From a virus: a stretch of 38,648 bases of DNA. Each line of letters starts with the position of its first letter. Within the stretch, counting starts at the first letter, position 1. Position numbers and translations under genes: made by a program. Positions 1-38,648 of this stretch are shown piece by piece. The stretch spans positions 1 to 38,648 of the IMG/VR virus record IMGVR_UViG_3300026311_000005; one strand, 5' to 3'. The notes below the pieces were generated by a model. That model worked only from the letters and a program-made list of their open reading frames with translations. It made no database searches and was not told the DNA's origin.

Positions 1-127
1 CCCCTCCGAACAGAGGCCGGTCGTCCCGGTAAATGTAGCTGTTGGAGCCGTCGTCGGCGTCATCGATATGAACCGATCCCACCCGATGATAGACCAGGCA
101 GATCGGGACGGTATTCGCGACGAGAGC
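1..127. repeat. Terminal direct repeat, copy 1: bases 1-127 are identical to 38522-38648, so the unique genome unit is 38,521 bp
   Basis: Direct base-by-base comparison of the first and last 127 bases of the window; the repeat lies inside a coding region. Confidence 0.9.
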
Positions 128-847
128 CGGAGCCGTCGGTGACGCGTCCTCTGCGCCCGTCGAGATCGCCAGAGCCCCGGCGTCGGTGAGGTATACCCGA
201 TCTATCCGGGGTTTGGCGGAGGGAGCCGACATGGCCGGCGAATTGCCCCCCGCGAAGCTCACTAGAGCCCCGTTTATGTAAGCCTGGAACTCCGGGACGT
301 AGATGGTCATGTCCGGCGTATCTTGAGCCCTGGGGGCCCCTTTCGCGATGGTATCGTTGATGAGGGAGGCGAGCCTATTGAAGAGGTCGGCATCCAGGCT
401 CCCCGCACCGATCGCGTTCCAGTGGACGGGATCAGGCGGCTCATCATCGGTCGACGTTGCTATGCAGAGATACGTCACTCCTTCATGAGAAACCACATCC
501 AGCGGATCGTATTCTGTCAGCGCTGACCACGCGCCCATCCAATTCAGGGTGGCGGCCGGCCCCTCCGGCCCCTGGATGCCTTGCTCCCCTTGTGGCCCTA
601 CTAGCGAGGAGACCGCGATCAGATTCTCCCATTCTCCGTCGCCGAGACGCCACTGGATATAGCCTCCGTCTACTCGGATGGTGACCTCCTCACCGTCGGC
701 TCCGGCTGGTCCCGCCGGCCCCTCCGGCCCCAGTAGATCAGCGAACTCTATATATTTTGTTTCTCCCGCGTCCATGTCCACAATCGGAATAATGTCACTG
801 TCGGCAGGAGTCTCCAGCGGGTTCAGTTCAGATATTTTTATTCCCAT
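1..847 (-). CDS. Tail fibre protein, N-terminal portion of a gene that wraps the window ends (ATG at 847; continues as 38521 down to 37722; about 548 aa in total)
   Basis: Manual translation of the minus strand from the ATG at 847 gives MGIKISELNPLETPADSDIIPIVD..., with Gly-X-Y collagen-like stretches (GPEGPAGPAGADG, GPQGEQGIQGPEGPA) and a W...Y..D.V...G..Y.....W segment resembling a CBM5/12 carbohydrate-binding module; the frame stays open through position 1 and is in frame with ORF 37722..38603. Confidence 0.6.
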   Translation of the reverse strand, partial: MGIKISELNPLETPADSDIIPIVDMDAGETKYIEFADLLGPEGPAGPAGADGEEVTIRVDGGYIQWRLGDGEWENLIAVSSLVGPQGEQGIQGPEGPAATLNWMGAWSALTEYDPLDVVSHEGVTYLCIATSTDDEPPDPVHWNAIGAGSLDADLFNRLASLINDTIAKGAPRAQDTPDMTIYVPEFQAYINGALVSFAGGNSPAMSAPSAKPRIDRVYLTDAGALAISTGAEDASPTAPALVANTVPICLVYHRVGSVHIDDADDGSNSYIYRDDRPLFGG

Positions 848-856
848 ACGTATGCC

Positions 857-2038
857 TCACGGTCTATATCTGTCGCGCCATTCGATGACATACTCGTCCG
901 TCCCCGCAATGCTCAGTTCCGCCGACTCTCCGGCCGGGACTATCGGGATCTCGGATATGGCGATGTGTCTCCACTGCTCGATTTTCAGGCTCGGTATGGA
1001 GATAGATGTCAGATCGCCGTCGGCGGCAATTCGGATATATGCGTTTTCCATTCCCTCGGCTTGAGGGACATAGATCATCATCTCCCTGCCAGTCGTCCAC
1101 CGCGGGCTCTGCGAATCGATCACGGTCTGCCACGAGGCTTCACCGTCGGTCGAAACGTCGATCGATGCTATGCCCTCCCCTGTCAGAGTGGGCCGGATGG
1201 TCAGCAGCAGACCGCCCTTGCGGATCGGGAAAACTCCGGGGAGATCATATATTGCATATCCGGACGTTGTGATCACAAGTTCCCCGTCGGATACTGATGC
1301 ATTCGATGACGATGACTTGTCGGCCGCGAACTTATCCCCGTCATCGAACATATCCTCATACAGTTGATATAGCTGACCGAATCTGTCCATTGTCAGCTCC
1401 TCATCGGACATGAGCGATGGAGCGACGAGGACGGACGCATCACCGATCGTGATTGTGACATCGGCCCCACCGACGACCGATAGCGAAAACAGGAACGCGT
1501 CCAGCGTCCCGTCATTCTGAATGTACGTAGGCGATGGGAATGGGAATAACATCTCCTCACCATACTCTGCCAGGAGGGCTTGGCCTGCCTCTGACAGCAG
1601 CGGAGCATACCCGAACGTCGGGGCCGCGGCATAGAGCTCCGCAGCCTCGGCCCAGAACTTAGCGGTCTTCCGGACGATCCCCGCCCCCCCGGCCGCTGGC
1701 TCGATCTCGGTATCTCCCACCGAGCCGTGGACGACCGCGAACCGATCAGCCCGGCCGAAATAGAGGCGGTCCGTCTCCTGATCCCCGGCGAGGTCATCGA
1801 TGAGAGCGGTGATCTCGTCCTCATCGCCTATCTGGTCGGCGAGGTCCGGCCGGAATATGAGGCCCGCCACCAGGGTGAGGGGATCGCGGCCCTCCTGCCA
1901 GACGACGGCCCGGTTGCCCCCGATGATGGGTGAGGTCTTCGCCCTGCGGCCCGCGCCTTTGGCCCGCCGGGGCCCCCACTCAACATAGGAGGAGATGTCG
2001 GTATCTCCGATCTGGATTTTTCGCGATATTGAAGTCAT
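857..2038 (-). CDS. Tail-associated protein (393 aa), function unknown
   Basis: ORF track; 4-nt overlap with the upstream tail gene; its stop is followed 9 nt later by the tail fibre ATG, with a GAGG motif spanning the stop. Confidence 0.4.
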   Translation of the reverse strand: MTSISRKIQIGDTDISSYVEWGPRRAKGAGRRAKTSPIIGGNRAVVWQEGRDPLTLVAGLIFRPDLADQIGDEDEITALIDDLAGDQETDRLYFGRADRFAVVHGSVGDTEIEPAAGGAGIVRKTAKFWAEAAELYAAAPTFGYAPLLSEAGQALLAEYGEEMLFPFPSPTYIQNDGTLDAFLFSLSVVGGADVTITIGDASVLVAPSLMSDEELTMDRFGQLYQLYEDMFDDGDKFAADKSSSSNASVSDGELVITTSGYAIYDLPGVFPIRKGGLLLTIRPTLTGEGIASIDVSTDGEASWQTVIDSQSPRWTTGREMMIYVPQAEGMENAYIRIAADGDLTSISIPSLKIEQWRHIAISEIPIVPAGESAELSIAGTDEYVIEWRDRYRP

Positions 2039-4611
2039 GGTTTCGTGATCCCTCTGACTGTGCCAGTTATATCCGAATTTTGCGATATCGCATATCTTCG
2101 AATCATCAACACCGATATCGTTTCGAGATTACCATCCAATCTGCAAAATTGTGATATATCTAAATCGCTAATAATATTCCCATATATTGGCTTCGCTGTA
2201 AGATACGCGCATCGCGCTCCGTTAACGGTGACGATGCAGTCCACCGCCGCATCTGGATTTTCTTGTGAAGTCGTCCCGGACGAAGATAACGAAAACAATA
2301 CCAACCCGGCATCGGTCCCAAAATCATCGGGCGTGAAATTCATCTCAAATTCATATCCTGAAATATATATATGACCACTCGCTGTTCCGATAGTGTTGTG
2401 TCCTGACAACATCAATCCATCTTCCCATGACGTGATGCACGATACCGACGTGGTGATTAATCCGCTGACATCCTCCCAATCTTTCCCCCAATTAGTCGAT
2501 CGGTATAATTCTCCGGCACTAGACGATGCGACCACAAATCCATTGCGGAACGCGTGAAGCTTTTGGATTGTCGTGGATGGGCTGTCATAGACTTCCGTCC
2601 AAGTTGTCCCGTAATCTGTCGATCTAAAAATCTTTCCACCGCGACTAGATCCTGCTAGTATTATACCAGACGTCCACCCTGCCAACGAATATATGAACAA
2701 TTCGGATGAATCGTAGACTTCCGTCCACGTCGCTCCATAATCTGTCGACCTGAAAATCTTTCCACTTGGGTACGTCCCTGCAAATCCGTGCCCCGTGGGG
2801 ATTGCACATGTCCCGAATATATATTGCTCGCTAGTATTATACACTTCGGCCCAAGTTTCTCCGTAATCCGTTGACCGCAAAATACGGCCATTTGCTGATG
2901 TCCCGGCAATTGCGTATCCATTTTCCCATGTAGACATTGCCCATATCTGCGATCCAGATGAATCGTAGACTTCCGTCCACGTCGCTCCATAATCTGTAGA
3001 CCTGAAAATCTTTCCGTTTGGGGAGCTTCCCGCAATTGCGTATCCATTTTCCCATGTAGCTATTGAAGTAATATTATGTTCAGGTGTTACATTTTTAGCT
3101 ACTGCCCAGGTTACCCCTCGATCCGTAGATCGAAAAATCTTCCCGCCCGCGCCTGAGCCACCGTCACCGGTCCCGGCTATTGCAATATCGTCGTTCTGAA
3201 ACACCCCAATTGATGCAATAGTTTTTTCTCCGGTACTATATATGTGTGCGAACATATTTGACTCAGAACTATATGAGGCCTCCCCCACCAACCTGTCACG
3301 ATACGCCTCTATCGCTCCGGTTTCGGATCGTTCCAAAAACGCCGTTAGCAGCGACAGATCTGGCGCTCCGACGACGGCCACCTCCCCTGCGATCGTCTCT
3401 CGAATAGATCGAATCTGAGCCGCGAATTTCTCACCGCCCTCGAGATCCAATTCGATCCAGTCTCCTACATCCATACCGCCTCGATACAGATCGATCTCTA
3501 CCGGCGCGTGTTGATGGATCGCATCGTAAAAGTCATCAGTTGCCTGGTCCAGGTGGCCCCACGGTGGAAGCCTGGCACCGGGGAGCTGGTAGGTAGTCTC
3601 AAGCCACGCCTGACCCGGACACAGCAGCTCGCCACGAGCGTACCGCACGCCCTCTATATTTTCCGCGCCGGCGCCCATCCCGACAACGCAAGAATACGGG
3701 ATATATCGAGGTGGCGAGATCTTCTGTAGACTGAAATCATCGCCGATGTGCAGCGACGCGTGGGGGGCCGACTCCGACCCCCTCGCCTTCGGAGTCGCCG
3801 AAATGTCCAGATAGACGTAATCCTCCTCTCTCCGAAAGACGACGTACTGCCCGGTCTCCCCGACGAGATCCCGGATCAAGCCCCAGATCTCGGTCTCGCC
3901 AACCTCGTACGGCGCTCCGACCTCGGAGTCGGTCGCCACGGTGCCTAGCCGGACGTGATTTTCTGCCCACCCGTCGGCGGCGATCACATCATAGATATCC
4001 CCCGTTCCGGCCCCTCGGACATAGAGGTTATCCCCCGAGATCGCATAGCGATAGGTCCCTCCTGCGATCGAGGATAGGGTGGACTCGGCGAGCTTGTGGC
4101 CGCCGTAATAGATATCGTGACCGGTGACGAGCGGTCCCCATCCCTCCAGAGTTCCCACGCCATCCGAATCCCATGACACGATCCCGGTGTCCTGACCGTC
4201 GCAGATCTTCGACCTGCTGAGCCAGAGGAGGCCCATGCAGTACTGAGTCGCCCCGGCCCCCTGTGGCGGGGCGTCGGAGGAGAAGATGTCGGATAGGGTG
4301 AGCCCGACGCCGCCGGGATAAATGATCTCTGGCGCGTATCGGCACTGGAGAAGGGCTTCGGCGGCGATGCAATCATACCGCCTCTGCCCTCCCACGGCGC
4401 TGTACTCGATAGAGACGACTGAGCCGATGAAGAGCACGTCCCCGGAATCCGAAACGGCCCGGACCCTCGCCCCCATTCGGATATGATCGATCTCCGAAGC
4501 GATGGACAGAGAATCGCCTAGATCGTTCTCCAGGGAGCGGAAGAGTTCCGGGTCGGAACCGTCGATGACGAACTCGGACGACTGTCCAGGATTCTGAAAA
4601 TATAGCATCAT
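2035..4611 (-). CDS. Large tail protein with a predicted Asp-box (BNR) beta-propeller domain, sialidase-like
   Basis: Seven repeats of the Asp-box motif S-x-D-x-G-x-T-W (RSTDYGATWTEV and variants); matching near-identical 60-bp DNA repeats around 2700-3020; N-terminal region paralogous to 4608..6803; start placed at the ATG at 4611 that overlaps the upstream stop (ORF track start 4668). Confidence 0.6.
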   Translation of the reverse strand: MMLYFQNPGQSSEFVIDGSDPELFRSLENDLGDSLSIASEIDHIRMGARVRAVSDSGDVLFIGSVVSIEYSAVGGQRRYDCIAAEALLQCRYAPEIIYPGGVGLTLSDIFSSDAPPQGAGATQYCMGLLWLSRSKICDGQDTGIVSWDSDGVGTLEGWGPLVTGHDIYYGGHKLAESTLSSIAGGTYRYAISGDNLYVRGAGTGDIYDVIAADGWAENHVRLGTVATDSEVGAPYEVGETEIWGLIRDLVGETGQYVVFRREEDYVYLDISATPKARGSESAPHASLHIGDDFSLQKISPPRYIPYSCVVGMGAGAENIEGVRYARGELLCPGQAWLETTYQLPGARLPPWGHLDQATDDFYDAIHQHAPVEIDLYRGGMDVGDWIELDLEGGEKFAAQIRSIRETIAGEVAVVGAPDLSLLTAFLERSETGAIEAYRDRLVGEASYSSESNMFAHIYSTGEKTIASIGVFQNDDIAIAGTGDGGSGAGGKIFRSTDRGVTWAVAKNVTPEHNITSIATWENGYAIAGSSPNGKIFRSTDYGATWTEVYDSSGSQIWAMSTWENGYAIAGTSANGRILRSTDYGETWAEVYNTSEQYIFGTCAIPTGHGFAGTYPSGKIFRSTDYGATWTEVYDSSELFIYSLAGWTSGIILAGSSRGGKIFRSTDYGTTWTEVYDSPSTTIQKLHAFRNGFVVASSSAGELYRSTNWGKDWEDVSGLITTSVSCITSWEDGLMLSGHNTIGTASGHIYISGYEFEMNFTPDDFGTDAGLVLFSLSSSGTTSQENPDAAVDCIVTVNGARCAYLTAKPIYGNIISDLDISQFCRLDGNLETISVLMIRRYAISQNSDITGTVRGITKP

Positions 4612-6803
4612 CGTAACTCCACCTGGAGACGTCTGCATCGTGTCACGCCGTCGCCCCTGCCACTCCAAATCTGGCAGTAGAGGTATATTCCTGCCTGGAG
4701 ATCATCAAGCTCCTGCTGAGTCCATGTTGCGCCGGAATAAGGATTAGTAATCCATTCATCCTCGAAGCGTTGATAGACACCGATAAGAGATCGTTGCGCC
4801 CCCCAATATACCGTACTGTGTGTTTTTATAAACGCTCTCGAATACCCGACATCCATACCACGTTCTAATATAGCATCATGGACAAGAACTACCTTGAAAT
4901 CGAATGATGGCTTAGCTTCGTTGCTGAGGTTCCAAAGGGCCGTGCCGGATGCTTCTGCCCCGCCAATGCGACCAGCGTCCGCCAAGATATAAATATCCCC
5001 TGTCAGCGTTGATGAGATCTTAGATCCGAGCGTTAGTGTCTTTATCGCGCTCTGCCCATATCTCCCGATGCCCCGGACGGTGATCGTGTACCCGAGCGTC
5101 TCCGAAAGGGTCCCCGTGGGGTCGGTGACGGCGATCTCCAGCGTCTCCTCGGTTCCATCGAGCGCGCACCACTCAGTGATGTCCAGCCCCTCGAAGATCG
5201 GATCTTTTCCCCAAGGCTGATGGGGGATGATCGCGATGACCTGGCCTGCTGGATAGGTGGTGTTGGTGATGGTGAGGGTCCACGTGACAGCGAGGTCAGA
5301 CTCGTCCGAGTCTCCGGGTGTCGTAGCCCTGAGATCGACCAGGATCTCGGCAGTGTCCCGGTCACTGGATGCCGTCGGAGTCCAGGATATAGAGCCCGTA
5401 GTCCCCGGACCGATGTTGTCGGTGGCCTCCTGATTCCCGAACGCCTGCCCCGCCCGCATGGCGGCGATTGCAGCCGACGCCTGTTTTTCGAGATACGCAT
5501 TTCTGGGGCTGGCATACTTTCCCCCGAGCCGGATCTGTCGGAGGGGCGACAGATCGCGGGATATCTCCGATATCTGAGCGGTGGCGATCTCCGAAGGCGA
5601 GATCTCTACATCGAGCCAGTCACCGGGCAGGAAGTAGTCGATCGCTGTTTCCAGGGAGATAAAATCCGCCTCGGAGACATCGCCCCATTCTGCATCAGCG
5701 ATATCCTCCAGTCTGCCTTTCGGGGACAGTCTCCCCTCCGAGACGTCTAACGTCTGCTCTATCCAGGGCCCTCTTTTCGAGAGATCCGCCTCTGTGTAAA
5801 TCACCCTAGACACCCCTGCCCCAGCCCCACGACAGATCAAGGCAGTCGGAGGGATATCTCTTGGCGCAGTTCGCTTGAGGCTGATATAATCGCCCGGCCC
5901 GATGGAGAACGCGCCGCCCGACGACGAGCCCCGGACCCACGGATTTATCGACCCGTCTAGGTACGTCAAATCTCCGACGTGCCGAAGTCGAAGATAGATC
6001 CCCATATCGAAAAGAAAATCGTGAATAATCTGCCAATAATTGTCATCGTCGCCGGAGACGTCCAGAGCCGCGAGGAGGTAGTCGCCTGATCTGTCCAGGT
6101 TGCCGAGCCGGAGCCCGGTATCCTTGAAGTTGTCGATGCAAACCGGCCCGAAATCACCGACACCTGCGCCATAGACATAAAGATCGTTATCTCGATAAAT
6201 CCTGTACGTTCCGCCGCTGATATCTCCGAGGGAGTCTACCTCAGTGCAGAGATGGCCGCCTACGTAGACGTCTTTCCCCGCCGTCCGAGGATGTGACCCC
6301 CAGTTGGCCCACTTCCAGACTCCAGCCGTTCGAGAGTCCGCTGTTAGCGGGAAGTAACTATGAGCCATCCAGATTAGGCCTGGCACGTACTGATCCGTTC
6401 CGGCTGATTGGCTGGGAGGATCGGACGACAGGACTTGGGCCAGCGTAAGCGCGGAATAGCCCGAGACGATGGCCGGCGCTCCCCATCGCATCAGGCCCCA
6501 CGGCACCCGGCTCTTCAAAATTTGAGGGATGGATATGCACTTGATTTTCAGGCATCCCTCAGTCTTCCCCGTGGCGGCGTTGTAGAATGTTGCCCCTTCG
6601 CGAGAGGCCGCTGCACCACGATAAATCGTGTGGCCGTTCTCGACCATCTTGAGCCACGACCGATCCCGAACGGGTGCCCGGTACGATACCTTGAACTCCA
6701 GATCCTCCCCCTTGTCGAAGTCTCGGTATTGAGTATGGCGGAGATCCATGATATCGATCTGATGATAGGTCCCAGTAGCGTCGGCGACGTAGACCTCTTG
6801 CAT
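4608..6803 (-). CDS. Large tail protein (731 aa), paralogous in its N-terminal half to 2035..4611
   Basis: ORF track; shared block GGTYR.Y.D..LYV.GAG.GD with the neighbouring gene; immediately downstream of the tape measure gene. Confidence 0.5.
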   Translation of the reverse strand: MQEVYVADATGTYHQIDIMDLRHTQYRDFDKGEDLEFKVSYRAPVRDRSWLKMVENGHTIYRGAAASREGATFYNAATGKTEGCLKIKCISIPQILKSRVPWGLMRWGAPAIVSGYSALTLAQVLSSDPPSQSAGTDQYVPGLIWMAHSYFPLTADSRTAGVWKWANWGSHPRTAGKDVYVGGHLCTEVDSLGDISGGTYRIYRDNDLYVYGAGVGDFGPVCIDNFKDTGLRLGNLDRSGDYLLAALDVSGDDDNYWQIIHDFLFDMGIYLRLRHVGDLTYLDGSINPWVRGSSSGGAFSIGPGDYISLKRTAPRDIPPTALICRGAGAGVSRVIYTEADLSKRGPWIEQTLDVSEGRLSPKGRLEDIADAEWGDVSEADFISLETAIDYFLPGDWLDVEISPSEIATAQISEISRDLSPLRQIRLGGKYASPRNAYLEKQASAAIAAMRAGQAFGNQEATDNIGPGTTGSISWTPTASSDRDTAEILVDLRATTPGDSDESDLAVTWTLTITNTTYPAGQVIAIIPHQPWGKDPIFEGLDITEWCALDGTEETLEIAVTDPTGTLSETLGYTITVRGIGRYGQSAIKTLTLGSKISSTLTGDIYILADAGRIGGAEASGTALWNLSNEAKPSFDFKVVLVHDAILERGMDVGYSRAFIKTHSTVYWGAQRSLIGVYQRFEDEWITNPYSGATWTQQELDDLQAGIYLYCQIWSGRGDGVTRCRRLQVELR

Positions 6804-9800
6804 CTAATGCCCTCCCCTGAGCCTGCCGACGTAAGCATCGCTAATCTCGATCTTCAGCTCTTCGGCCACTTCGCGGGCGATCTCCCTGGCGTCCCCGCCA
6901 CCGTAGACGGTTATCGGGGCGTTCACTGTGACGCCCCCACCCCCTCCCGCCGTAGCCACCGCCTGCTGAATCATGGGAAGAAGATCCCCGAGAGGGGCGA
7001 CCACTTCGGGCGTCCGGGCGTCCCCGACGACCGCCCGGACGGGAGACGAGATGATCCCGCCGGGGGCGAACGAGAGCCAACCACCCGGAGCAAGCGTGCC
7101 GTCGGCATAGTTTCCGCCGCTGGGTCCCCACGTATCCAGGACTCCGGGGTTCATGACCTCCAGCCAAATGGGCTTCGTGGTGGGGGCCATGATCTCTGCC
7201 TCCAGACGATCCAACTCGGTCATCGCGGGGGATATGTCGGCGAGGACGGGGGAGATTTTCTCCGTCTTGATGTCGCCCTCCAACTTTTCCAGCTCGGTAT
7301 TCGCCGCAGCCGGATCGAGTTCCAGGTCGACTTCGACTGCGTACTGGAAGTAATTTTGCGCTTCGTATCCTTCTTTGGCCCCCTGACCGGGCCCCGCCCA
7401 TCCTTCCGTCGGGCCGATGTAAGACCTGGCGAACATGTCCTCCTGGGCTTCCTGCCACGCGCCGAATCCAGACCACCAACCGGGCATAATACTGGTCGTC
7501 GTTTCGGCGGAAGCTTTTTCCAGTCCGGCCTTCCCCGCCTTCGTGAAGTATTTGGCTATGGCGTCGATGGCTTCAGGATCGATCTCTTCCGGGATCACCG
7601 ATAGCAAGAAATCTTTGGCCAGTGATACCGTACTTTTCTCGTAATCCCAGGGGTTCGTGATGATTCGATAGGCTGCTTCTGCATCGGAGCCGAGTTCGCC
7701 GACGATCTGGCTCAGAGAATACAGATCGTCGGCGAACTCGCGGAGTCCCTTCTTTGTTTTTGATCCGTCGTATTCCTCCCAGAAGAGGGCCTCTCGGAGC
7801 GCGGAAGCTTCTGGTGATACTTTTGCCGTAACTTCTGCGATGTAAGGCTCGCCGGCGTCGATATGCTTTTGAAGCTCCGCGTTTATTCCAGTTGTATCTA
7901 TATTATTCGCTATATTGTAAGACCGCTGCTCCAGCATCCCTACAAGACGGCCCCACCAACTGAGGGCGGCCTGGCCCCCAGCCTCCTCGAACGCCTCGGG
8001 ATCGGCTAGCTTGAGATCTGCTAATTGAGTTTCGATATCAGAAGCTTCTGACGCCGTGATCAGCCCGTCCTCGAATGCCGCCCAACCGTCTTCTGCGACG
8101 TCTCCGAGTAGATCGGCCATCTTGTCGCCGAGCCCGCCGACGGCGAACGGCTTTTCGAGGGCCTCGCTAAACGCAGTTTCAAATTCCGCCTGGAGCCGTT
8201 CGGCTTCGGCTTCGAGGTCAAGCTTCAGTTCGGCTTGCGCCCGCATCTCGGCGGCCTCGCCGTGCTTCCCAAGAGCGTCTAACAGAGCAGCTTCGCGCTC
8301 GACGGGATCAATGAGGGCCCAAAGTCCGGGGAGCTGTGTCCGGATAGCGTTCATGGCAGCCTGAGGTGAATCATATGCCAGCCCAGTGAGCGATTTCCCG
8401 TTGATGTGGACCGCCCATTCCAATTGGGCATCGGGAGTATGTATTATTTCAATCGTATCCGACCCGGCGGATACCGTCCCCGTCCTGGAGAATCGCGGGA
8501 CCGTCTTCTCGTGGTAGTCGGCCCACCGCTTCATTTTGTCGTTCCAGGCATTCATGTAGCCGGAGGCAGCGGCGGAGCCAGCCCCCTCGCTGTCGACGTC
8601 TTTTAATTCCTTCTCGATACTGACACCGAGATCTGAAATGATATCGTTGAACGCAGCCAGATACTCATCGGCTGACATGTTGCCAGCGTTGGCGTTCAAG
8701 TCGGCCATCTGGCGGGTAAACTCAGTACCAAACTCTTTTGATCCGGATAAAACGCCATCGAGAGCAGTTATATATTCGTCTGCTGATATTTCTCCAGACT
8801 CAAACATCTCGGTGATCGGGCCGATGACGTATTCAGTAGATTCTCCTAATTGAGCATGGACATCTGAAATTGAGTTGATAGCATCCTGGTATTGAGTCGC
8901 CGATATCTCGCCTTGAGAGAACGCATCTTGGATCGGGCCTGCGATCGAATCAAAATCAGATCCAAGAGAAGTGACGGCGTTGGCAACGTCGTCCATTATG
9001 TTTTTGTACTCTTCCGCCGAAACCGTACCGTCCTCGAATGCTTGGGTGAGAGGTTCAAGAGCCTCGTCAGCCCCGTCACCAAGCTCCTCCGAAACGGTGG
9101 TCATGTCCTCCAGGATGGAGATGTAATCTTCAGCGGAGACCGTGCCGTTCTCAAATCCTTCGGTCAGGGGGCCGATCATGTCGGCGGCGGCGTCTCCGAC
9201 CTGCGAATAAATCTCAGATACGCTTGATAAGGATTTTTTGTACTGATCAGTTGTCAGTTTCCCCGTCGTCGCGAACTCTTGGAGCGAATCCATAAGTCCG
9301 GTAGTCGGACCTTTCATGCCAGCGCTCGATACCTCTTTCAATCCGCTGAGGTATTCTTGAGCGGTGAGCTTCCCAGCATCTCTGGCGGCCTGGACGTCGG
9401 CCATATCCTTCACCCACTCGTCGCCGATCTTAATCTGACCGCCCGCCGATTTTAGACCGTCGCTCAGCGCCCCAGTGACATCTCCAACGAACGAACCGAC
9501 AAGACCTCTGGTTTCAGTTCCGCCAGAGAGGACTTCACCTACCTTATTATCGAGCTTTTCTAGTCCTTCGTATAGTTCATATGCCCCTCCGGTAAGCCAT
9601 TGCCATCCCTGTGTTCCGAGACCGATGAGGGCTTGCGTGATGTCGTTCACGCCTTTCATCATCTGAGTGAGATATGGCAACAAAACGGCACCGATTGAGG
9701 TTGCAGCGACAGATATCTTTCCCTTGAAAATGTCTATCTGAGCATTTAGAGTTTCCTGAGACTTGGCGTAAGCTTCGTTCAGGCTGGAAGCGTTCTCCCA

Positions 9801-26813: not shown

Positions 26814-26826
26814 AACGACCGCCTCT

Positions 26827-27298: not shown

Positions 27299-27300
27299 CG

Positions 27301-27535: not shown

Positions 27536-27672
27536 GTGTCGCGTCGAGTCGAGTCAGGTCCGGTCGTGGCAGTCGCGTCGAGTCAGGTCGGGTCGGGTCG
27601 GGTCGTGGCAGTCGAGTCGCGTCAGGTCATGTCGAGTCGCGTCGAGTCCAGTCGGGTCCGGTCGTGGCAGTC
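27536..27672. repeat. Pentanucleotide array 1: about 27 tandem NNGTC units in three blocks, each ending in GTGGCAGTC
   Basis: Read directly: GTGTC GCGTC GAGTC GAGTC AGGTC CGGTC GTGGCAGTC ...; 5-bp periodicity, six GAGTC units. Confidence 0.8.
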
Positions 27673-27696
27673 TAACCAAAATGGAGTTGAGAAAAA

Positions 27697-28853: not shown

Positions 28854-28860
28854 TCTTATC
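28835..28860 (+). other. Hairpin GATAAGATC, 8-nt loop, GATCTTATC overlapping the cassette stop codon
   Basis: Read directly; arms contain TAAGATC, the half-site of the 26130/26315 palindrome. Confidence 0.3.
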
Positions 28861-28868
28861 TTTTCATG

Positions 28869-29025
28869 GCGGTCGGGTCAGGTCGTGTCGGGTCCGGTCG
28901 AGTCGAGTCGTGTCAAGGCAGTCGGGTCCGGTCGGGTCGAGTCATGTCTCGTCACGTCGAGTCAAGTCAAGGCAGTCGCGTCGTGTCGTGTCATGTCACG
29001 TCGTGTCGCGTCTGGTCGTGGCAGC
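28869..29025. repeat. Pentanucleotide array 2: about 26 tandem NNGTC units in three blocks punctuated by AAGGCAGTC, AAGGCAGTC and GTGGCAGCC
   Basis: Read directly; same unit type and orientation as array 1. Confidence 0.8.
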
Positions 29026-29170: not shown

Positions 29171-30529
29171 TCATGGCGCGAAGTCCTCCAGCGTCGCCGG
29201 GGGCCTCTCCGCCGCCGCCAGTCTAGCCTCGGCGATCTCGACGTACTCAGGCTCAAGCTCGATCCCGATATATCCGAATCCCTCCTCTTTCGCGGCGACG
29301 AGGGTCGTACCCGATCCGGCGAATGGGTCCAGGACCGTCCCGCCTGGGGGGGTGACGAGCCGGACTAGGTAGCGCATCAGCTTGAGGGGCTTGACCGTGG
29401 GGTGGTGGTTTTGGCGATGGGTTTTGCCTCGGAGATATGGGTTGTCAATCGGGGTGTTTCGTCCATCGTCTGTGATCCGATCTGGCATCCCCTCCAGCCC
29501 CCGGTTCCGTTCGGCCCGGCTCGCCTTCGCTACATATACGATCGGGTCCGGGTCTATCTGGAGGAAGAAGCGGGCGGCGGTGCCTTCTCTATCATGCCAT
29601 GTATGTTGCCCCCCCTTCAACCCGAACATACCACCCGGATCAGCTGATACTTTACCGCGGCCTTCTACAGAACCGCCGCTCTTCAGATGCCCCGATTGCT
29701 CCGCTATGAGCCGTACCGCACATCCTTCGACGCAGTCCTCCCCTCGCCGAACGCACCCCGGCGCGTGGCCGAGGATGAGGTTCGCAGGCCAGCGGCCAGA
29801 AGGGTTCTGGACGAACTCCGACCGATTCGTGTCTTTATATCCGCTTGGATATGTTCTGTTTTTTTGAACATGCCGGCCAGACGAAAGGATATCTCCCGTC
29901 CCGATCCGGCACCCGTCCACATTCACCGCGCCGCAACCCCACCGGAGGACGTTCGCCGCAACCGTCTTCTCTGATAACGGTTTGCGAGCCATCACGATCG
30001 GTTCATGGGCGGGCTTAAGAGCGGTCCCCCACCCGTCCCATTGGCGGGCGGCATCGGTGGCGGGGGCGGTGATGTCGACAGTTTTGCGGCTACCATCCGC
30101 TGGCAATGCGGGACCGTTTGCATATTGACTACCTCTGCCACCTGTTGCATTATTCCCCCAAACTTCTGATTGCCCTATCACGTCCCGCTCGGCCCCAGCC
30201 GCCCGGTCGATCGCCTTCGACACGTCCAGACTTTTCGGGAATCCTGATCCATATACCCAAGAGATACAGTCCCTGATCTCGAGTCCCGCGTCCTCGATCG
30301 CGCAAGCCAGCCGATGATAGGTCCGAGTCCCTCCGAACGCCAGCAGATAGCCGCCGGGCTTCAGGACGCGCCACGCCTGCCTCCAGACCTCCTGATCGTA
30401 GGCTATCCCTGACCCATCCCATTTCTTTCCCATGAACCCCAGCTCATAAGGCGGATCACAGACGATCGCGTCGATAGAGTTCTCCTCCATTTCGGCCATC
30501 CGTTCACGGCAATCTCCCTGTAATATCAT
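29171..30529 (-). CDS. DNA methyltransferase, beta-class amino-methyltransferase (N6-adenine or N4-cytosine), orphan
   Basis: Motif IV IVCDPPYE near the N-terminus and motif I VLDPFAGSGTT near the C-terminus; Cys-rich middle region; no adjacent restriction endonuclease. Confidence 0.85.
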   Translation of the reverse strand: MILQGDCRERMAEMEENSIDAIVCDPPYELGFMGKKWDGSGIAYDQEVWRQAWRVLKPGGYLLAFGGTRTYHRLACAIEDAGLEIRDCISWVYGSGFPKSLDVSKAIDRAAGAERDVIGQSEVWGNNATGGRGSQYANGPALPADGSRKTVDITAPATDAARQWDGWGTALKPAHEPIVMARKPLSEKTVAANVLRWGCGAVNVDGCRIGTGDILSSGRHVQKNRTYPSGYKDTNRSEFVQNPSGRWPANLILGHAPGCVRRGEDCVEGCAVRLIAEQSGHLKSGGSVEGRGKVSADPGGMFGLKGGQHTWHDREGTAARFFLQIDPDPIVYVAKASRAERNRGLEGMPDRITDDGRNTPIDNPYLRGKTHRQNHHPTVKPLKLMRYLVRLVTPPGGTVLDPFAGSGTTLVAAKEEGFGYIGIELEPEYVEIAEARLAAAERPPATLEDFAP

Positions 30530-32259
30530 CCGAAGCCCTCCAGCGTCGCCGGGGCCTCGAAGCTAAACAGGCTTTCCTGTTCATGATTCTTAAGCCCGGT
30601 GTCCACATCGCCGTATATCGATTTGATATTTTTGGGATCACCCTTATAAAATACCAGAACGTTCTGGTGAGTCTTCCCAAGCTTCCGGTATCCCTGAAAC
30701 TGCTTATTCACCCGGATAGGGAGCGACCCCACCGACGTGATCAGGACGGCCTCATTATAAAGGGTCGCCCCGGCGTCCTGGAAGGCTTCGATGGTATCCC
30801 CCACGAAGTTACGATAGAAGCCCCGCCGATCCCGGATATCCCCCACGACAAAGCAGGCGAATCGATCCGGCTTCAGCATCCCCACCGACGCCGCGACGAT
30901 GCCCCGATAGGTCTTGAGGAAGCCCTCATAATCCATGGTGGATAAGTCGCGGGGGTCGTCTGAGTATCTTTCGAGGTCGAAATATGGAGGACATGAAAAG
31001 ATGAGATCGTACCGACCGGGGGCGATGGCGGCGATGTCCTGGCTATCCCCGGCGATCCATCTGGGGTGGGTTCCGCCGTGTTTAATCGTGTCATTGTATC
31101 GAAGCTTCCGCCAGCTGTCCTTTGGCATGTATGAAACGAGGTCCCCGCCGCCTGCGTCGAAATGATCGCATATCCGCCCCGCCTCCTCGTCCCCGAAAAT
31201 ACGATCGAGAGACGCTCGGAAAGCCCGATACGCTGGAATCCTTTCTCCCTGGTTGTAGCATTTCAAGAGCTTATATCGGTTACGTACTATCAAGGTGTTA
31301 TTATCATTTAGCGTAAATGGGGACGCGATGCACCCGAAGGGCTTGTCTGTGGTAAAATGGAGTCCACACAGATCCTCGTCCGTCTTAAATGGGCATCGCC
31401 CGGAAGTTTCAAGCAGGCCGCCTTTTATAGACCCGCCCCGGCCCCGGATCGTCTCCTCCTCGTCTGGGTGGATGGTTATGATGGTCCCGCTAGGCGAGGT
31501 AGATGATTGACAGCAGCTCGCGTGACAAACTGATCGGATATAATCCGGATCGCATCCATGAAACGGTGTCCTGGCCATCGCGGCCGATACCTTGATCTGG
31601 ATCTTTCCATTATCAGACGGAGGACATTTCAACCCTATAAAATCCCATTGATCCTTATTCGCGGCTATCTGCTCCGGTCGGAGATCGACGCCGGTGTACT
31701 GGAAGCCCGTCAACGCCGCCACGATGCCCCGGACGGACCCGCCCGCGAAGGGGTCGAGGACATGGCCGCCGGGGGGCGTGAACCATCGATATATCAACTC
31801 ACAGAGGACGGGATCAAATATCGACGTGCCGCTCTGTGGCTGAGCCGCAAGAATCTTGCGGCTCACTTCGTCTAATTCGTCATCGGGCCGATTGCCCGTC
31901 ACCCAAGTCAATCGATCGCCTATCGGCCTCCCCGCGCCGTCTCCTCTCTCCCGGTGGGAGTAATCGCACGCGGGACGAGGACTCCCACCGGGAGACGCGT
32001 TCTTATAGTGGCTTCTGGCTTGCTCGGAGAAGCCGAGCAAGCCATTTTTATATTTTTTCGAGCCGTCGAATCCTATCTCCCCGTTTTGGCGGCTTATCGT
32101 GGCGGCGTCGGAATAGACATGCACACCGACGCCGCCACGTCCTATCTCGCTCTTGATCCCCTTCGCCAACCAGAACCTCTTCCTCTCCTGCCAATAGCCC
32201 TGCCGGGCGTCGAGGACGGAGAACGGCGGCATCACGAATTTATCGGATAACGTTCCCAC
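30526..32259 (-). CDS. DNA methyltransferase with a long Cys-rich insertion between motif I and motif IV, orphan
   Basis: N-terminal MPPFSVLDARQGYWQERKRFW, motif I VLDPFAGGS, motif IV-like FSCPPYFD; about 270 aa between them with many Cys; likely true start is the ATG at 32232. Confidence 0.75.
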   Translation of the reverse strand: MGTLSDKFVMPPFSVLDARQGYWQERKRFWLAKGIKSEIGRGGVGVHVYSDAATISRQNGEIGFDGSKKYKNGLLGFSEQARSHYKNASPGGSPRPACDYSHRERGDGAGRPIGDRLTWVTGNRPDDELDEVSRKILAAQPQSGTSIFDPVLCELIYRWFTPPGGHVLDPFAGGSVRGIVAALTGFQYTGVDLRPEQIAANKDQWDFIGLKCPPSDNGKIQIKVSAAMARTPFHGCDPDYIRSVCHASCCQSSTSPSGTIITIHPDEEETIRGRGGSIKGGLLETSGRCPFKTDEDLCGLHFTTDKPFGCIASPFTLNDNNTLIVRNRYKLLKCYNQGERIPAYRAFRASLDRIFGDEEAGRICDHFDAGGGDLVSYMPKDSWRKLRYNDTIKHGGTHPRWIAGDSQDIAAIAPGRYDLIFSCPPYFDLERYSDDPRDLSTMDYEGFLKTYRGIVAASVGMLKPDRFACFVVGDIRDRRGFYRNFVGDTIEAFQDAGATLYNEAVLITSVGSLPIRVNKQFQGYRKLGKTHQNVLVFYKGDPKNIKSIYGDVDTGLKNHEQESLFSFEAPATLEGFG

Positions 32260-34608: not shown

Positions 34609-35463
34609 CTATTTTTGGATCGCCGCAAGGATCTTGGCCGCCTTCACTTTTCCGATTTTCGGGACTGTGAGGAGCTTTTCCATCAGGTACTCGTCGGGCA
34701 CCGCTCCGGGCGGATGCTCGCACCAAAGGGCGGGCTCAATCCCTGCATCGATCATGTTCCGGGCCAGCGTCGGCCCCACTCCCGGCAAACACATTAGCAT
34801 GGCTTCTTGAGTTGATTCGCATTTCGGCATGGGGAGATGGATATCACCCTCCAAGTAGGCCCGCGACTCCCTGACAATTTGAGAAATATTCCGCCGCATC
34901 GCCCACTCCTCCGGGACCTCCAGCGTCATCGGAGGCATATCGAGAGGCGATTCGCCGAAAGCCACATCGACACCCGACGCCTTCAGAGCGGCGATACCTC
35001 GCCGGATCATGGCCTCGGCCTGCGCCCGCTCCCTGGGATTCCTCCATCCCGCCCCCGTCACTGCGGGCAACGTCCTCAGGACGTCCCCCAGAGACCCCAG
35101 GACGGCGACTTGGAGCGGGTAGGGACATTGCCTGCGCTGGGAGGATATATGGCCGTTCTGGAGGCTCTGAGCGAAGTCTGCGGGCATCTTCAGCTCGACG
35201 GCCCGATACTTCCTGATATATCGAGCTTCGGCGTCTTCCATTCGCCTCACGTCGGGGCCACTAGTCCATTCAGCCGAAAAGATCAGATCCACCTCCGCAT
35301 CACCGAAGGAAAAATCGTACTCGTCCGGGTGCCGGGCGATATACTCGGCGAGGGCGAGGTGGCGATCGGTCCCGCGCTCGCCGGGGGCCATGAGAATGGA
35401 GATCATTCTTCGTGCCTCCGAAAGTCGATCAGCGTCGCGGAGTAGGTCGATGGCGGACTTCAT
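34609..35463 (-). CDS. Putative DNA-binding or DNA-processing protein with tandem C-terminal helix-hairpin-helix motifs (284 aa)
   Basis: C-terminal LPGVGPTLARNMI and LTVPKIGKVKAAKILAAI segments; start at the ATG at 35463 overlapping the upstream stop. Confidence 0.45.
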   Translation of the reverse strand: MKSAIDLLRDADRLSEARRMISILMAPGERGTDRHLALAEYIARHPDEYDFSFGDAEVDLIFSAEWTSGPDVRRMEDAEARYIRKYRAVELKMPADFAQSLQNGHISSQRRQCPYPLQVAVLGSLGDVLRTLPAVTGAGWRNPRERAQAEAMIRRGIAALKASGVDVAFGESPLDMPPMTLEVPEEWAMRRNISQIVRESRAYLEGDIHLPMPKCESTQEAMLMCLPGVGPTLARNMIDAGIEPALWCEHPPGAVPDEYLMEKLLTVPKIGKVKAAKILAAIQK

Positions 35464-35888: not shown

Positions 35889-35987
35889 ATGGGCCGGGTT
35901 ACGATCCCCGCCAACATCCGCAAAAGGTTTGGGATAGAGAACGGGGACGAGGCAGTTCTAGTAGTTCTAAAGAAGGTGGAGAGATGA
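35889..35987 (+). CDS. AbrB/MazE-type (swapped-hairpin) small DNA-binding protein (32 aa)
   Basis: Manual translation MGRVTIPANIRKRFGIENGDEAVLVVLKKVER; stop overlaps the next ATG (ATGA). Confidence 0.4.
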   Translation: MGRVTIPANIRKRFGIENGDEAVLVVLKKVER

Positions 35988-36838
35988 CCATAGAAGAGAC
36001 CATAAAACAATTCATCGAAGACGTAAACGCCGAGTTCGGCTCGGACCTCGCCATAGACAGCCAGGGCGGGGATGGGGAGATATCGATCAACTGGCCCGGA
36101 CACGGCCACATCTACGTAGACGCCAAAACCGGCGAGATCCTGGGGAAGACGAAGCTCCAGGGGGGACTGGTAGACAAGCTCCGGGGCGCTCTGGGGGGCA
36201 ACGTCCCCGCCGTTCCGGGGCGAGGCGGCCAGATCCGACCCGCCAGCAAAGCCGCTCAATCCCTCCGAGAAATCCAGGACGAGGAGGCCGTCGCCTTCGT
36301 CGTCGATAGAAAATCAGGGAAGAAGGCCCCCACCGCCGCCCTCATCTCCAGAGCGGCCAACGCCGAGGGCCTGAGCTTCGAAGTGCTGGACTACGACCAC
36401 CGGCGCGACTTCGTGAAGGTGGCGATCCGGGCGACGTCCCCGGAAGGCCGGTATAATGACGCCGTGGTATCGGTTTATAAAGATGAATACCTCGCTCCCT
36501 ACGCCTGGGAGCTGGTGCAAAACAACTGTCCGTCGGCGGTAGAGGCGGTTGACCCGGAGACGGGGATGCCGATATTCCGGGAGGGGGCAACTATCCGAGT
36601 CCCGAAGAGCCGGGATGGTTCCAGGCTCTATGAGGAGGTTCCGGTCATCCTGTGGCTCGCCCAGAAGCTCGCCGCCCGGTGGCTATTCGCGCCCCGGAGC
36701 TGCGAGACGAAAGCCAAAGCCAGAGCCGCTAAGCAACTTCTGAATACTGACGCTGCCCCAACGAGCTGGCAGGAGCCCGAAGAGATCGCCGACGAGGAGA
36801 TGGAGTCATCACTGGTAGAGGGCGAGGTGGTGAGCTGA
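35984..36838 (+). CDS. Hypothetical protein (284 aa), translationally coupled to the AbrB-like gene
   Basis: ORF track; no recognisable motif. Confidence 0.45.
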   Translation: MTIEETIKQFIEDVNAEFGSDLAIDSQGGDGEISINWPGHGHIYVDAKTGEILGKTKLQGGLVDKLRGALGGNVPAVPGRGGQIRPASKAAQSLREIQDEEAVAFVVDRKSGKKAPTAALISRAANAEGLSFEVLDYDHRRDFVKVAIRATSPEGRYNDAVVSVYKDEYLAPYAWELVQNNCPSAVEAVDPETGMPIFREGATIRVPKSRDGSRLYEEVPVILWLAQKLAARWLFAPRSCETKAKARAAKQLLNTDAAPTSWQEPEEIADEEMESSLVEGEVVS

Positions 36839-36913: not shown

Positions 36914-37321
36914 ATGATCCGCCTCCCCCTTTTGGCCGCGCTCCTCCTCGTCGTCGGTGGAACGGCGGAGTGGTCCCTCGCCACCGGCATCGCCCCTGAA
37001 CCGTTCACGAGCGATCGGCTCGCCGTCGACGTGGCCCGGCTCGCCGGGGGCAACCTGACTCTCGAAGAGTGGGTCGTCGTCCTCGCCCTAGGGCATGGCT
37101 ACAACGTCACCATGGACGGAATAGTGACGTTGGACGACGGGGAGCGGATCGATATCTCCGCCCTATACATCGTGGTATCCGGTCCCATCGAAATATCCCT
37201 GGAGCACGCCCCCCACAAAAATGATGAATCACCACCATATAGCCGAGCCGCGCGTTGGTACTTTGGGCTCGTACTCGATCACGAGTCGAATCTTGGCACA
37301 CCCGCAATAATTGTACAATGA
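36914..37321 (+). CDS. Hypothetical secreted protein (about 135 aa); 3' end overlaps the convergent gene 37229..37720
   Basis: Signal-like N-terminus MIRLPLLAALLLVVGGTA; high third-position GC in the first two thirds only. Confidence 0.3.
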   Translation: MIRLPLLAALLLVVGGTAEWSLATGIAPEPFTSDRLAVDVARLAGGNLTLEEWVVVLALGHGYNVTMDGIVTLDDGERIDISALYIVVSGPIEISLEHAPHKNDESPPYSRAARWYFGLVLDHESNLGTPAIIVQ

Positions 37322-37720
37322 TACCCCAAACTGAAGTGCCCTGATCGCGGCTGCCGTCCAAGGCTGTCCAGTGGAGGGGTCAGTCGTCCACTCCTGGGTA
37401 TAATTGACCCAGGCTTTCGTCGCGTCAATCTCGGCACCGTAGTATAGTGTCGAGTTTATCAGAAGCGTTCCCTTGGCCCAACTGGGCGAGTAACCGCCGT
37501 CGTTCAGTTGGAGTATCAAGCTGACTTTCGATATAGACTTCGCCTCGAAGCCAGCTAATCCGGCGTCGTAAGTGTCGGTATACCACACATCGTCGTACCA
37601 ACAATCGACGTACGTTGAGGTAGATTCGTCAGCGACGAGCATGTAATTAGTAGAGCCCCCCATAGGGTAACACTGCGTATAAGCGCCCGGTCCGACGGGT
37701 GCGACGGTAAGTGTCTCCAC
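37229..37720 (-). CDS. Last gene of the tail cluster (163 aa), possibly a fibre-associated or receptor-binding protein
   Basis: ATG 1 nt after the tail fibre stop; Trp/Tyr-rich. Confidence 0.4.
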   Translation of the reverse strand: METLTVAPVGPGAYTQCYPMGGSTNYMLVADESTSTYVDCWYDDVWYTDTYDAGLAGFEAKSISKVSLILQLNDGGYSPSWAKGTLLINSTLYYGAEIDATKAWVNYTQEWTTDPSTGQPWTAAAIRALQFGVSLYNYCGCAKIRLVIEYEPKVPTRGSAIWW

Positions 37721-37721
37721 T

Positions 37722-38648
37722 CTACATCACCCTCGTCGGTACCCTGACCTCGAACGACTCCACGAGGAAGTCGCTAGTGAGATTATTCGAGCTGGGCGCT
37801 ATCCTCGATATCGCCAGCCTCACCCTTTGACCGGCAGACCAACCAAGGGAGCTGACGGTCGCCGTCCAGGTGTAGATGACGGGCCGGTTCTGGGTGGCGT
37901 TGCAGGCTAGGTCGCCTGAGTCGCTGGCGGTCGAGTAAGCAGTATCGACAGACCCTGCGCCGCTCGACAGGACCAACTGCTTCACCCTGAACTTAACGTT
38001 CTTGCCGGCGGCCGCCGTCTTGGCCCACCCCACGAGGGCGAACGTTATGGTTCCCCCAGTGTTGATGTCGGCCGGCACCACGAAGGCCGGCGCCTGGGCC
38101 GTCTCCTCGGTAGTGTCATCGAATGCAAGCGTAACCACCGCCTGGTTCGTCCCATCCAATAGGTATTCCTCGGGCGAGTTGGCGGCGTCAAGGTTGAATG
38201 CGGTGGGCGGCAGCACGAGGATCCTCGTGCTGTAGAGATACGTCCAGGCCGGATCGTCTGCACCCATCGACAGAACGGAGTACTGGGAGCCTTTGGCGAG
38301 CCTGGCGGCGTCACCGGATCCCCGGTATAGCAGGTCTCCCCGGGTCGTGAGGATCTGGTTCAGAAGGGTCGCCAGGGTGGCCCAGGCCGGATCGTCTGCA
38401 CCCATCGACAGAACGGAGTACTGGGAGCCTTTGGCGAGCCTGGCAGAAGTTCCGTCCGAGCGGTATAAGAGATCTCCCCTTGTGGTCAGGATCGTATCTA
38501 GTATCGCCGCCGGAGTCGAAACCCCTCCGAACAGAGGCCGGTCGTCCCGGTAAATGTAGCTGTTGGAGCCGTCGTCGGCGTCATCGATATGAACCGATCC
38601 CACCCGATGATAGACCAGGCAGATCGGGACGGTATTCGCGACGAGAGC
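37722..38648 (-). CDS. Tail fibre protein, C-terminal portion (38522-38648 duplicates 1-127); contains a tandem 46-aa repeat
   Basis: ORF track 37722..38603 with no stop upstream to the window end; internal repeat ILTTRGDLLYR...ARLAKGSQYSVLSMGADDPAW occurs twice; last large gene of the tail cluster. Confidence 0.6.
   Translation of the reverse strand, partial: ALVANTVPICLVYHRVGSVHIDDADDGSNSYIYRDDRPLFGGVSTPAAILDTILTTRGDLLYRSDGTSARLAKGSQYSVLSMGADDPAWATLATLLNQILTTRGDLLYRGSGDAARLAKGSQYSVLSMGADDPAWTYLYSTRILVLPPTAFNLDAANSPEEYLLDGTNQAVVTLAFDDTTEETAQAPAFVVPADINTGGTITFALVGWAKTAAAGKNVKFRVKQLVLSSGAGSVDTAYSTASDSGDLACNATQNRPVIYTWTATVSSLGWSAGQRVRLAISRIAPSSNNLTSDFLVESFEVRVPTRVM
38522..38648. repeat. Terminal direct repeat, copy 2 (identical to 1-127)
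   Basis: Same comparison as above. Confidence 0.9.

Follow-up and report, generated by a model that had tools for sequence, protein, structure and literature searches.

A complete, circularly assembling genome of an uncultivated tailed virus, probably of a methanogen, with a predicted GUC-repeat VIPR locus and no recognizable integrase or replicase

Introduction

The IMG/VR record IMGVR_UViG_3300026311_000005 was analyzed over its whole length of 38,648 nucleotides (positions 1 to 38,648, hereafter the window). The window is one complete virus genome that assembles as a circle of 38,521 bp. In the best overall explanation, to which we assign a probability of about 0.75, this genome would be packaged by the headful mechanism, would be copied by the replisome of the host with the help of a virus-encoded pair of recombination proteins, carries a predicted VIPR system, and belongs to a virus of a methanogenic archaeon. 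An earlier description of the same DNA, referred to here as the original prediction, had pointed to the overlapping ends of a small tailed virus without a replicase. Both observations are correct but ordinary. More notable are a VIPR system with a variant repeat, of a kind first reported in 2026, in what is probably a methanogen virus, and a putative nuclease of the XPF/Mus81 type.

Results

The first and the last 127 nt of the window are identical without a single mismatch (1-127 = 38522-38648), and the comparison of prefix with suffix gave no longer overlap. The probability of such an identity by chance is negligible (4^-127), and trimming one copy leaves a unique circle of 38,521 bp. Through exact-protein look-ups, further public assemblies of this genome were located. 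The European Nucleotide Archive contig k141_961531 (38,662 bp) begins at window position 22492, at the portal/terminase boundary, and direct comparison of its ends revealed an exact overlap of 141 nt between start and end. Its positions 4738-38662, aligned as two loci, are 100% identical to the window, while positions 1-4451 were checked over the first 200 nt and 4452-4737 were left out. The JGI contig Ga0123335_1001437 (38,644 bp) begins at window position 13145, has an exact overlap of 123 nt, and in the parts sampled is 99.99% identical to the window, with one mismatch in 17.5 kb. All three assemblies reduce to the same length (38,648-127 = 38,662-141 = 38,644-123 = 38,521). One 20,492-bp piece of k141_961531 (L082) is 100% identical to the window and runs unbroken from position 27229 across the junction to position 9199. 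A linear contig of 38,430 bp from a fourth assembly, NODE_1889, ends within a tandem duplication in the fiber gene.

The values 127 and 123 are usual largest k-mer lengths in SPAdes and MEGAHIT settings, and one contig carries k141 in its name. Because the length of the overlap differs by assembly and its position is arbitrary, the 127-nt overlap is an assembly artefact that stems from a circular graph, and positions 1 and 38648 are not physical ends; the assembler would have walked once around the circular graph and left its largest k-mer twice. The original prediction had reported the overlap and read it in the same way, and both statements are borne out by the exact identity, the differing overlaps elsewhere and the contiguity of L082 across the junction. 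In practice, the sequence is best handled as a circle of 38,521 bp from which the extra 127 bp have been cut, with the fiber annotated as a single ORF (open reading frame).

That ORF occupies the minus strand on both sides of the junction. In the circularized sequence it extends without interruption over 548 aa, from window position 847 to 1 and then from 38521 to 37722, and it is called as an intact gene in L082. The protein contains collagen-like G-X-Y runs, matches tail-fiber families in PHROGs (best E 4e-12) and is encoded by the last gene of the tail module, so that the name tail fiber gene, under which the original prediction had placed the overlap, is a reasonable one. Only distant partial relatives of the fiber protein were found in IMG/VR, and these were hence of no use for spanning the junction. 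A 138-bp tandem duplication in the 3' part of the gene (1.8 copies, with a 63-nt exact core) encodes the repeated motif 'ILTTRGDLLYR...GADDPAW'.

Genes for integration and replication were sought in several ways. Concatenated sets of all ORFs called in the non-structural region were compared with Pfam and PHROGs, the structural ORFs with PHROGs and ten of these also with Pfam, and the ten largest unknowns with NCBIfam. Precomputed Pfam results on the gene calls of identical public contigs covered the whole genome except window 9200-9686, which lies in the tape-measure gene. Within this scope there was no match to an integrase (Phage_integrase) or a Resolvase, nor to any polymerase, helicase, primase or initiator domain. 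The lack of integrase, polymerase, helicase and primase was part of the original prediction, which also suggested a profile search of the hypothetical proteins, and no integrase or replication domain surfaced in that search. Its proposal that replication proteins go unrecognized among the hypothetical genes did not hold up: these appear to be the VIPR genes, the nuclease, a putative annealing protein, lineage-restricted ORFans and some small proteins that may bind DNA (weak Arc/ribbon-helix-helix (RHH) and AbrB/MazE-like matches in Pfam and PHROGs). The sole name in the genome that sounds like replication is PF20557 'DnaT_2', which falls on the 167-aa adaptor; a role as primosome protein was rejected, and the name was judged an artefact in view of the head-tail joining context and the match to PHROG adaptor Ad1. 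DNA-metabolism genes are nonetheless present, namely the nuclease and two DNA methyltransferases.

The sister virus L004 from IMG/VR has a structural module that is 92-95% identical to that of the window at the nucleotide level. Opposite window 25.85-32.38 kb it encodes (L004:600-3570) a T5orf172-domain protein and a 711-aa D5-like primase-helicase with the domains D5_N (E 6e-24), DUF5906 and Pox_D5, and no remnant of the D5-like gene was found in the window by tblastn. A second sister virus, L003, has only a Dam methylase and no D5 at that position (L003:2050-3650). Because the D5-like gene of L004 is so easily recognized, the absence of integrase and replicase genes from the window is real and not a problem of sensitivity. 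Comparison of these sister viruses, whose virion genes are nearly identical, shows a module swap at one locus. At this locus the window itself holds an AT-rich region, a 159-aa ORF, RHH paralogs, the VIPR genes and two methyltransferases. A lytic lifestyle cannot be concluded from the missing integrase and replicase.

The predicted VIPR system comprises a two-gene cassette (27697-28853) and the period-5 repeats that flank it. In a sequence search, the 211-aa product of vipr matched PDB entry 36pp, 'SUSP1 Vipr protein', and a profile built from 43 Vipr sequences, run against the PDB, matched this entry alone (E 5.9e-12; positions 20-194 against 4-190 of 202). The SUSP1 RNA-contact residues H17, R138, D177, W178 and R179, which are reported to hold the GGY bases, align to H37, R144, E183, W184 and R185 of the window protein, each of which is conserved in 40-43 of the 43 sequences. 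Accordingly placed in the alignment, the G-loop GVGEWRP and thumb residue R144 of the window Vipr lie opposite D177/W178/R179 and R138 of SUSP1. Homologs of Vipr were found in 69 IMG/VR loci and 152 cultured-phage records. A period-5 triplet array adjoins the homolog in 46 of the 69 IMG/VR loci, usually just past the following gene; GGC is the usual triplet, with GUC in the arrays of the closest relatives. The accessory gene, in vap position, overlaps the vipr stop by 4 nt and accompanies vipr in every identical contig. Its 174-aa product had no match in PDB, Pfam or NCBIfam and matched only phrog_15946, a family of unknown function.

Six predicted guides make up two arrays (vrRNA arrays A and B) and tile them with exact 1-nt overlaps. 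The guides are 7-12 units long, and their 59 units carry the triplet GUC in 52 cases and GGC in 7. Every guide finishes on the constant end GUC(GU/AA/AU)-GGCAG. In array B, a conserved tail GGCGUGUCUUGCUGCCAC comes after the last guide, and a U-run then reaches to about position 29050. A terminator-like hairpin predicted after array B was dropped, since it was not more stable than shuffled sequences (z -1.3). No Rfam family matched the window, and even at E<=1 the surroundings of the VIPR locus gave no meaningful match. Contigs with 100% identical Vipr differ in the number and content of their guides, of which 32 are distinct, while the array flanks are conserved. Because guide content varies in this way beside an identical Vipr and conserved flanks, the guides appear to be programmable. 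Other identities for the period-5 repeats, namely a TRAP-like ring protein with its RNA and iterons or a centromere, were rejected because the match to SUSP1 Vipr and the VIPR preprints explain them.

Several smaller observations concern the same locus. The short leader ATGGC(G/A) stands ahead of both arrays (27505-27538 and 28858-28872). A TTATATAA box lies about 18 nt upstream of array A and could be an archaeal TATA box, whereas array B directly follows the accessory gene and may be co-transcribed with it. The Vipr changes A55G, A107G, H112F and Q167S and an inserted K190 are common to the three GUC-array sequences compared and L012, and they seldom occur in the remaining 39 sequences, most of which have GGC arrays. 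It is possible that residues 55, 107, 112, 167 and 190 determine the changed triplet. Shortly upstream of array A, a 108-nt segment is duplicated with 81% identity (26824-26931 and 27298-27405) and encodes two paralogous small proteins of about 41-47 aa, '...RLAKFGDASD...VLDLAEAMRDGGA'.

The nuclease has 37 homologs, some of which JGI names ERCC4-type or flap-endonuclease-like. Its profile matches the XPF of A. pernix over the tandem helix-hairpin-helix domain, (HhH)2, with E 6.5e-7. In the AlphaFold2 (AF2) model, with a predicted local distance difference test (pLDDT) score of 82.7, the best 28 PDB matches by Foldseek are all Mus81, XPF or Hef (best E 1e-7), and the template modeling (TM) score is 0.70 when normalized to the Hef nuclease domain. 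Residues D59, K92 and D96 are invariant in the homolog alignment, with E-L-K at 90-92; relative to the motif GDxnERKx3D, L takes the place of R and the spacing from the acidic residue to ELK is longer. The Pfam ERCC4 family did not reach E 0.05 on this protein. The XPF/Mus81 fold of this putative structure-specific nuclease is shown by the model.

A second 284-aa protein is encoded nearby on the plus strand (35984-36838). Over its N-terminal 73 aa, this protein shares 74% identity with PF03837 RecT-family proteins from related viruses and 38% with the RecT-like protein of the virus vir515. From its position and this shared domain, we infer an annealing protein of unassigned family. Two results count against this assignment: the RecT core (PF03837) had no Pfam match in the protein, hhalign aligning the first ~75 residues only, and the AF2 model has a pLDDT of 55.7, for which the RAD52 match by Foldseek (E 0.04) is not meaningful. 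PDB sequence searches with both 284-aa proteins, the nuclease and the annealing candidate, and with the vap-like protein returned nothing significant. The ~73-aa N-terminal domain (window 35984-36200; L001:10688-10900) sits on a RecT core in relatives and on an unrelated core here, which suggests domain shuffling among annealing proteins. The two predicted methyltransferases probably protect the genome from restriction.

On its gene content, the virus is an uncultivated siphovirus-like tailed virus. The minus-strand module from 23951 to 857 encodes the large terminase (TerL), portal, scaffold, capsid, Mtd-like protein, adaptor, Mu F-like protein, connectors, tape measure, three large tail proteins and, beyond them, the fiber (Table 1). 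No nucleotide match was obtained when 25 kb were compared by megablast with 50,697 phage records. The 169-aa ORF upstream of TerL is a small-terminase candidate by position and had no family match in Pfam, PHROGs or NCBIfam. The second domain of the Mtd-like protein, PF21916 (E 5e-13), is as in the tropism determinant of diversity-generating retroelements, and a reverse transcriptase was not found in any part of the genome. In the 858-aa tail protein, sialidase-like propeller BNR/Asp-box repeats arise from 126-nt DNA repeats, especially at 2565-3041, where GC is locally low (0.46 vs 0.58); this suggests that its receptor-binding domain was acquired horizontally.

Table 1. Coordinates, strands and supporting evidence of features in the window
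Feature	Position	Strand	Basis or remark
Terminal overlap, left copy (127 nt)	1-127		Identical to 38522-38648; assembler artefact
Tail-fiber-like gene, 5' part (start codon at 847)	1-847	-	ORF call, PHROGs, L082
Tail module: 393-aa, 858-aa and 731-aa proteins and 1373-aa tape measure	857-10925	-	PHROGs, Pfam
BNR/Asp-box repeat tail protein, 858 aa	2035-4611	-	Pfam/PHROGs
Tape measure protein, 1373 aa	6804-10925	-	PHROGs, Pfam
Mu F / SPP1 gp7-like head morphogenesis protein	15631-16401	-	PHROGs, Pfam
Head-tail adaptor, 167 aa	16398-16901	-	PHROG adaptor Ad1; Pfam PF20557 'DnaT_2'
Mtd-like protein, 359 aa	17405-18484	-	Mtd second domain PF21916
HK97-type major capsid protein	19687-20685	-	PHROGs, database gene calls
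Scaffold	20700-21212	-	PHROGs, database gene calls
Portal	21238-22620	-	PHROGs; SPP1_portal family on record
Large terminase (Terminase_6N / Terminase_3)	22617-23951	-	PHROGs, Pfam
Small-terminase candidate, 169-aa ORF	23833-24342	-	Position only; gene called in L088
AT-rich intergenic region	26124-26333		20-nt inverted repeat
159-aa ORF beside AT-rich region	26334-26813	-	Lineage-restricted
Duplicated small RHH-like ORFs	26827-27447		RHH paralogs
VIPR locus overall (predicted)	27533-29024 (noted to 29050)	+	Vipr, accessory gene, six guides
vrRNA array A (predicted guides 27533-27572, 27572-27611, 27611-27670)	27533-27670	+	GUC-NN units, ends GUCGU-GGCAG
vipr, 211-aa Vipr (minimal RAMP) homolog	27697-28332	+	PDB/profile matches
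Accessory gene, vap position, 174 aa	28329-28853	+	phrog_15946
vrRNA array B (predicted guides 28872-28921, 28921-28975, 28975-29024)	28872-29024	+	Period-5 repeats
Predicted N6/N4 DNA methyltransferase 1	29171-30529	-	Pfam, PHROGs
Predicted N6/N4 DNA methyltransferase 2, short ParB-like N-terminal match	30526-32259	-	Pfam, PHROGs
Putative XPF/Mus81/Hef-fold (ERCC4-type) nuclease, C-terminal (HhH)2	34609-35463	-	Profile, AF2, Foldseek
Candidate single-strand annealing protein, 284 aa	35984-36838	+	N-terminal domain common with RecT-family proteins
Tail-fiber-like gene, 3' part	37722-38648	-	Holds 138-bp tandem duplication 38244-38493
Terminal overlap, right copy (127 nt)	38522-38648		Prefix/suffix comparison

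Discussion

Because no replicase was recognized in the genome, the most likely replication strategy is that the virus would rely on the host replisome plus its own recombination functions. The nuclease and the annealing candidate, acting as a recombination pair, would support recombination-dependent replication, and they would make and resolve concatemers for packaging.

The host is probably an archaeon, namely a Methanotrichaceae methanogen, although the evidence is weak to moderate. For the capsid protein, a match of 81% identity lies on a 4.5-kb contig from a metagenome-assembled genome (MAG) of Methanotrichaceae. The nuclease, which is of an archaeo-eukaryotic type, is 50% identical to a gene of vir515, whose GenBank record names Methanosarcinales as host, and vir515 is also the second-best TerL match in the phage collection. 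Against an archaeal host, the capsid evidence is a single contig binned into a MAG, one nuclease homolog (82% identical) is labeled as a protein of a Proteiniphilum MAG, and among cultured viruses the capsid is closest to phages of Firmicutes, at about 40% identity. The host could thus be a bacterium living in anaerobic communities instead of a methanogen; the cultured capsid relatives from Firmicutes and Actinobacteria phages (37-42% identity), the close nuclease homolog and the Shine-Dalgarno-like motifs that precede most genes would all fit such a host. We consider it somewhat unlikely in view of the capsid, nuclease and TerL matches listed above, and a GC content of 58% does not fit Proteiniphilum.

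The virion DNA would most likely be linear, terminally redundant and circularly permuted through headful packaging, which we infer because TerL is similar to that of a pac-type phage. Across 88% of its length, the window TerL shares 34.7% identity with TerL of Streptomyces phage Alderaan, whose packaging was classed as headful/pac by PhageTerm, a read-based terminus analysis, and which PhageAI predicts to be temperate (PMC7650747). Several points weigh against headful packaging. The link to Alderaan rests on 35% TerL identity, TerL and portal showed no pairwise BLASTP similarity to SPP1 G2P/G6P, and assemblies cannot tell headful packaging from cos ends or a circular episome. With cos ends or a circular plasmid-like episome, a circular assembly would be equally expected; moreover, a temperate life without an integrase would need an episomal state, and 56% of VIPR loci are in proviruses according to the VIPR preprint (10.64898/2026.04.26.720920 / 10.64898/2026.04.26.720927). 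These possibilities are nonetheless unlikely, as Alderaan and phiS58 (the latter annotated as PBSX-family), both among the nearest TerL relatives, speak for headful packaging, the window encodes a Mu F / SPP1 gp7-like head protein and a portal of an SPP1-type family, and no partition or plasmid-replication gene was found save for a 40-aa ParB-like N-terminal match on a methyltransferase.

Small ORFs of 40-170 aa that lack homologs beyond the lineage could still include a replication initiator. In one form of this idea, the 159-aa ORF, the small RHH-like ORFs and the AT-rich region would form an initiator-and-origin module that replaced the D5 gene. The D5-like gene of L004 does lie opposite the segment that contains these elements, and both the 159-aa ORF and the AT-rich region recur with 99% identity in L003, another virus without D5. 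The AT-rich region has a GC content of 0.49 against 0.58 and contains a perfect 20-nt inverted repeat (26130-26149 / 26307-26326), the arms of which are 157 nt apart and each hold the 12-bp palindrome GTAAGATCTTAC. However, the inverted repeats could be operators of the downstream operon, and the replaced segment also carries the methyltransferases and VIPR, which makes positional replacement unspecific. The 159-aa ORF has no family match in Pfam, PHROGs or NCBIfam, and its homologs amount to five metagenomic protein clusters, 53-98% identical and domainless. With such lineage-restricted homologs only, the 159-aa ORF was rejected as the hidden initiator, and we regard the module as a whole as improbable. 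The AT-rich region may be an operator or regulatory region or an origin candidate.

There is practically no chance that a linear genome with fixed ends at 1/38648 bears this 127-bp stretch as a genuine direct terminal repeat (DTR): short-DTR genomes also show exact terminal repeats in assemblies, but this repeat sits within coding sequence, two other assemblies have repeats of different length at other positions, and both pass the window junction uninterrupted.

VIPR was described in two 2026 preprints (bioRxiv 10.64898/2026.04.26.720920 and 10.64898/2026.04.26.720927). In the published systems, a minimal RAMP protein, with an RRM core, G-loop and thumb, polymerizes on vrRNAs made of GGY-NN repeats, and the NN dinucleotides bind double-stranded DNA (dsDNA), with one target base skipped between them, thereby silencing competing phages; guides comprise 9-16 units, and 'staggered arrays' are mentioned for other types (same preprints). 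The words 'GUC' and 'GTC' do not occur in the main text of the VIPR preprint, figures excepted. By analogy, Vipr protomers of the window would each bind one GUC-NN unit and expose its NN dinucleotide, and the exposed dinucleotides would recognize the dsDNA of competing viruses and lead to transcriptional silencing.

We tentatively propose, at slightly less than even odds, that the locus represents a distinct VIPR variant. It would comprise a Vipr clade that reads GUC-NN, with base 2 of the triplet changed from G to U while the G-contacting residues are retained, and short staggered guides capped by GUC(GU/AA)-GGCAG; it would be carried by a methanogen virus and show rapid guide turnover among otherwise identical viruses. 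The target searches weigh against the VIPR reading. Under the 1-nt-skip rule, no vrRNA target rose above the permuted-guide null in the window and 1.29 Mb of related loci; these local scans used skips of 0-3, and skip 3 re-found only the arrays themselves. In exact scans of IMG/VR, guide A3 (as 11 and as 10 units) and guide B2 had 0 matches, and an exact scan of JGI metagenomes gave 3 matches, all to ptsP of bacteria with 68-71% GC, non-extending and attributable to chance. The searches of collections considered exact full-length matches only and are weak negatives. No self-targeting by the guides was found.

If the proposal of a distinct variant is true, GUC would provide a second, naturally occurring 'repeat code' from which orthogonal VIPR guides could be engineered, and RNA-guided conflict between viruses would extend to viruses of methanogens. 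The unannotated GUC-repeat locus, with 32 naturally varying guides in public assemblies, offers comparative material for a system known from 2026 preprints. The genome also provides a well-supported example of a tailed virus, probably of Methanotrichaceae, without a replicase or integrase beside a sister with a D5-like primase-helicase, and of a putative virus-encoded XPF/Mus81-type nuclease paired with an annealing candidate whose core fits no known family.

When compared with known systems, the ends of the window differ in nothing from the k-mer overlap of circular contigs, the 'DTR' completeness signal of viral metagenomics, and with an exact prefix equal to the suffix, a size typical of k and an arbitrary position they make a textbook case. 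Alderaan and other pac-type siphoviruses resemble the window in genome size (about 38-39 kb) and in TerL, and the gene order TerS-TerL-portal-scaffold-capsid, inferred from the window gene map, is as in pac-type siphoviruses. However, Alderaan is predicted to be temperate whereas the window has no integrase or replication module, and the comparison concerns virion genes alone. The virus vir515 (Caudoviricetes sp., BK063672, a circular record of 36.5 kb) is of similar size, has a TerL that is 33% identical, and likewise encodes an XPF-like nuclease (vir515_00016) and a DNA methyltransferase, while its RecT-like protein has the N-terminal domain in common with the annealing candidate. Unlike the window, vir515 has a DNA primase of 1056 aa and a genuine RecT core, has no vipr annotated, and has a capsid in a different PHROG. 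The putative nuclease is similar to archaeal short XPF, the Hef nuclease domain and Mus81 in combining a nuclease fold with a C-terminal (HhH)2 over about 250-280 aa, and the invariant D...ELK...D resembles the ERCC4-family motif, but it is encoded by a virus and falls below the Pfam ERCC4 threshold.

The closest counterpart of the VIPR locus is that of the Escherichia phage SUSP1 (type II VIPR), which likewise has a two-gene operon of vipr and accessory gene with arrays upstream and downstream. SUSP1-type arrays are also tandem 5-nt repeats with a fixed triplet and a hypervariable NN, and in published VIPR, as here, arrays differ between otherwise identical loci. The fixed triplet of the window is GUC, in contrast to GGY, with GGC only in the last unit of each guide. 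Its guides follow one another directly and overlap by 1 nt, similar to the 'staggered arrays' of the preprint, whereas each SUSP1 guide has a long structured tail. Finally, the window differs from SUSP1 in the constant guide end GUC(GU/AA)-GGCAG and in its probably archaeal host.

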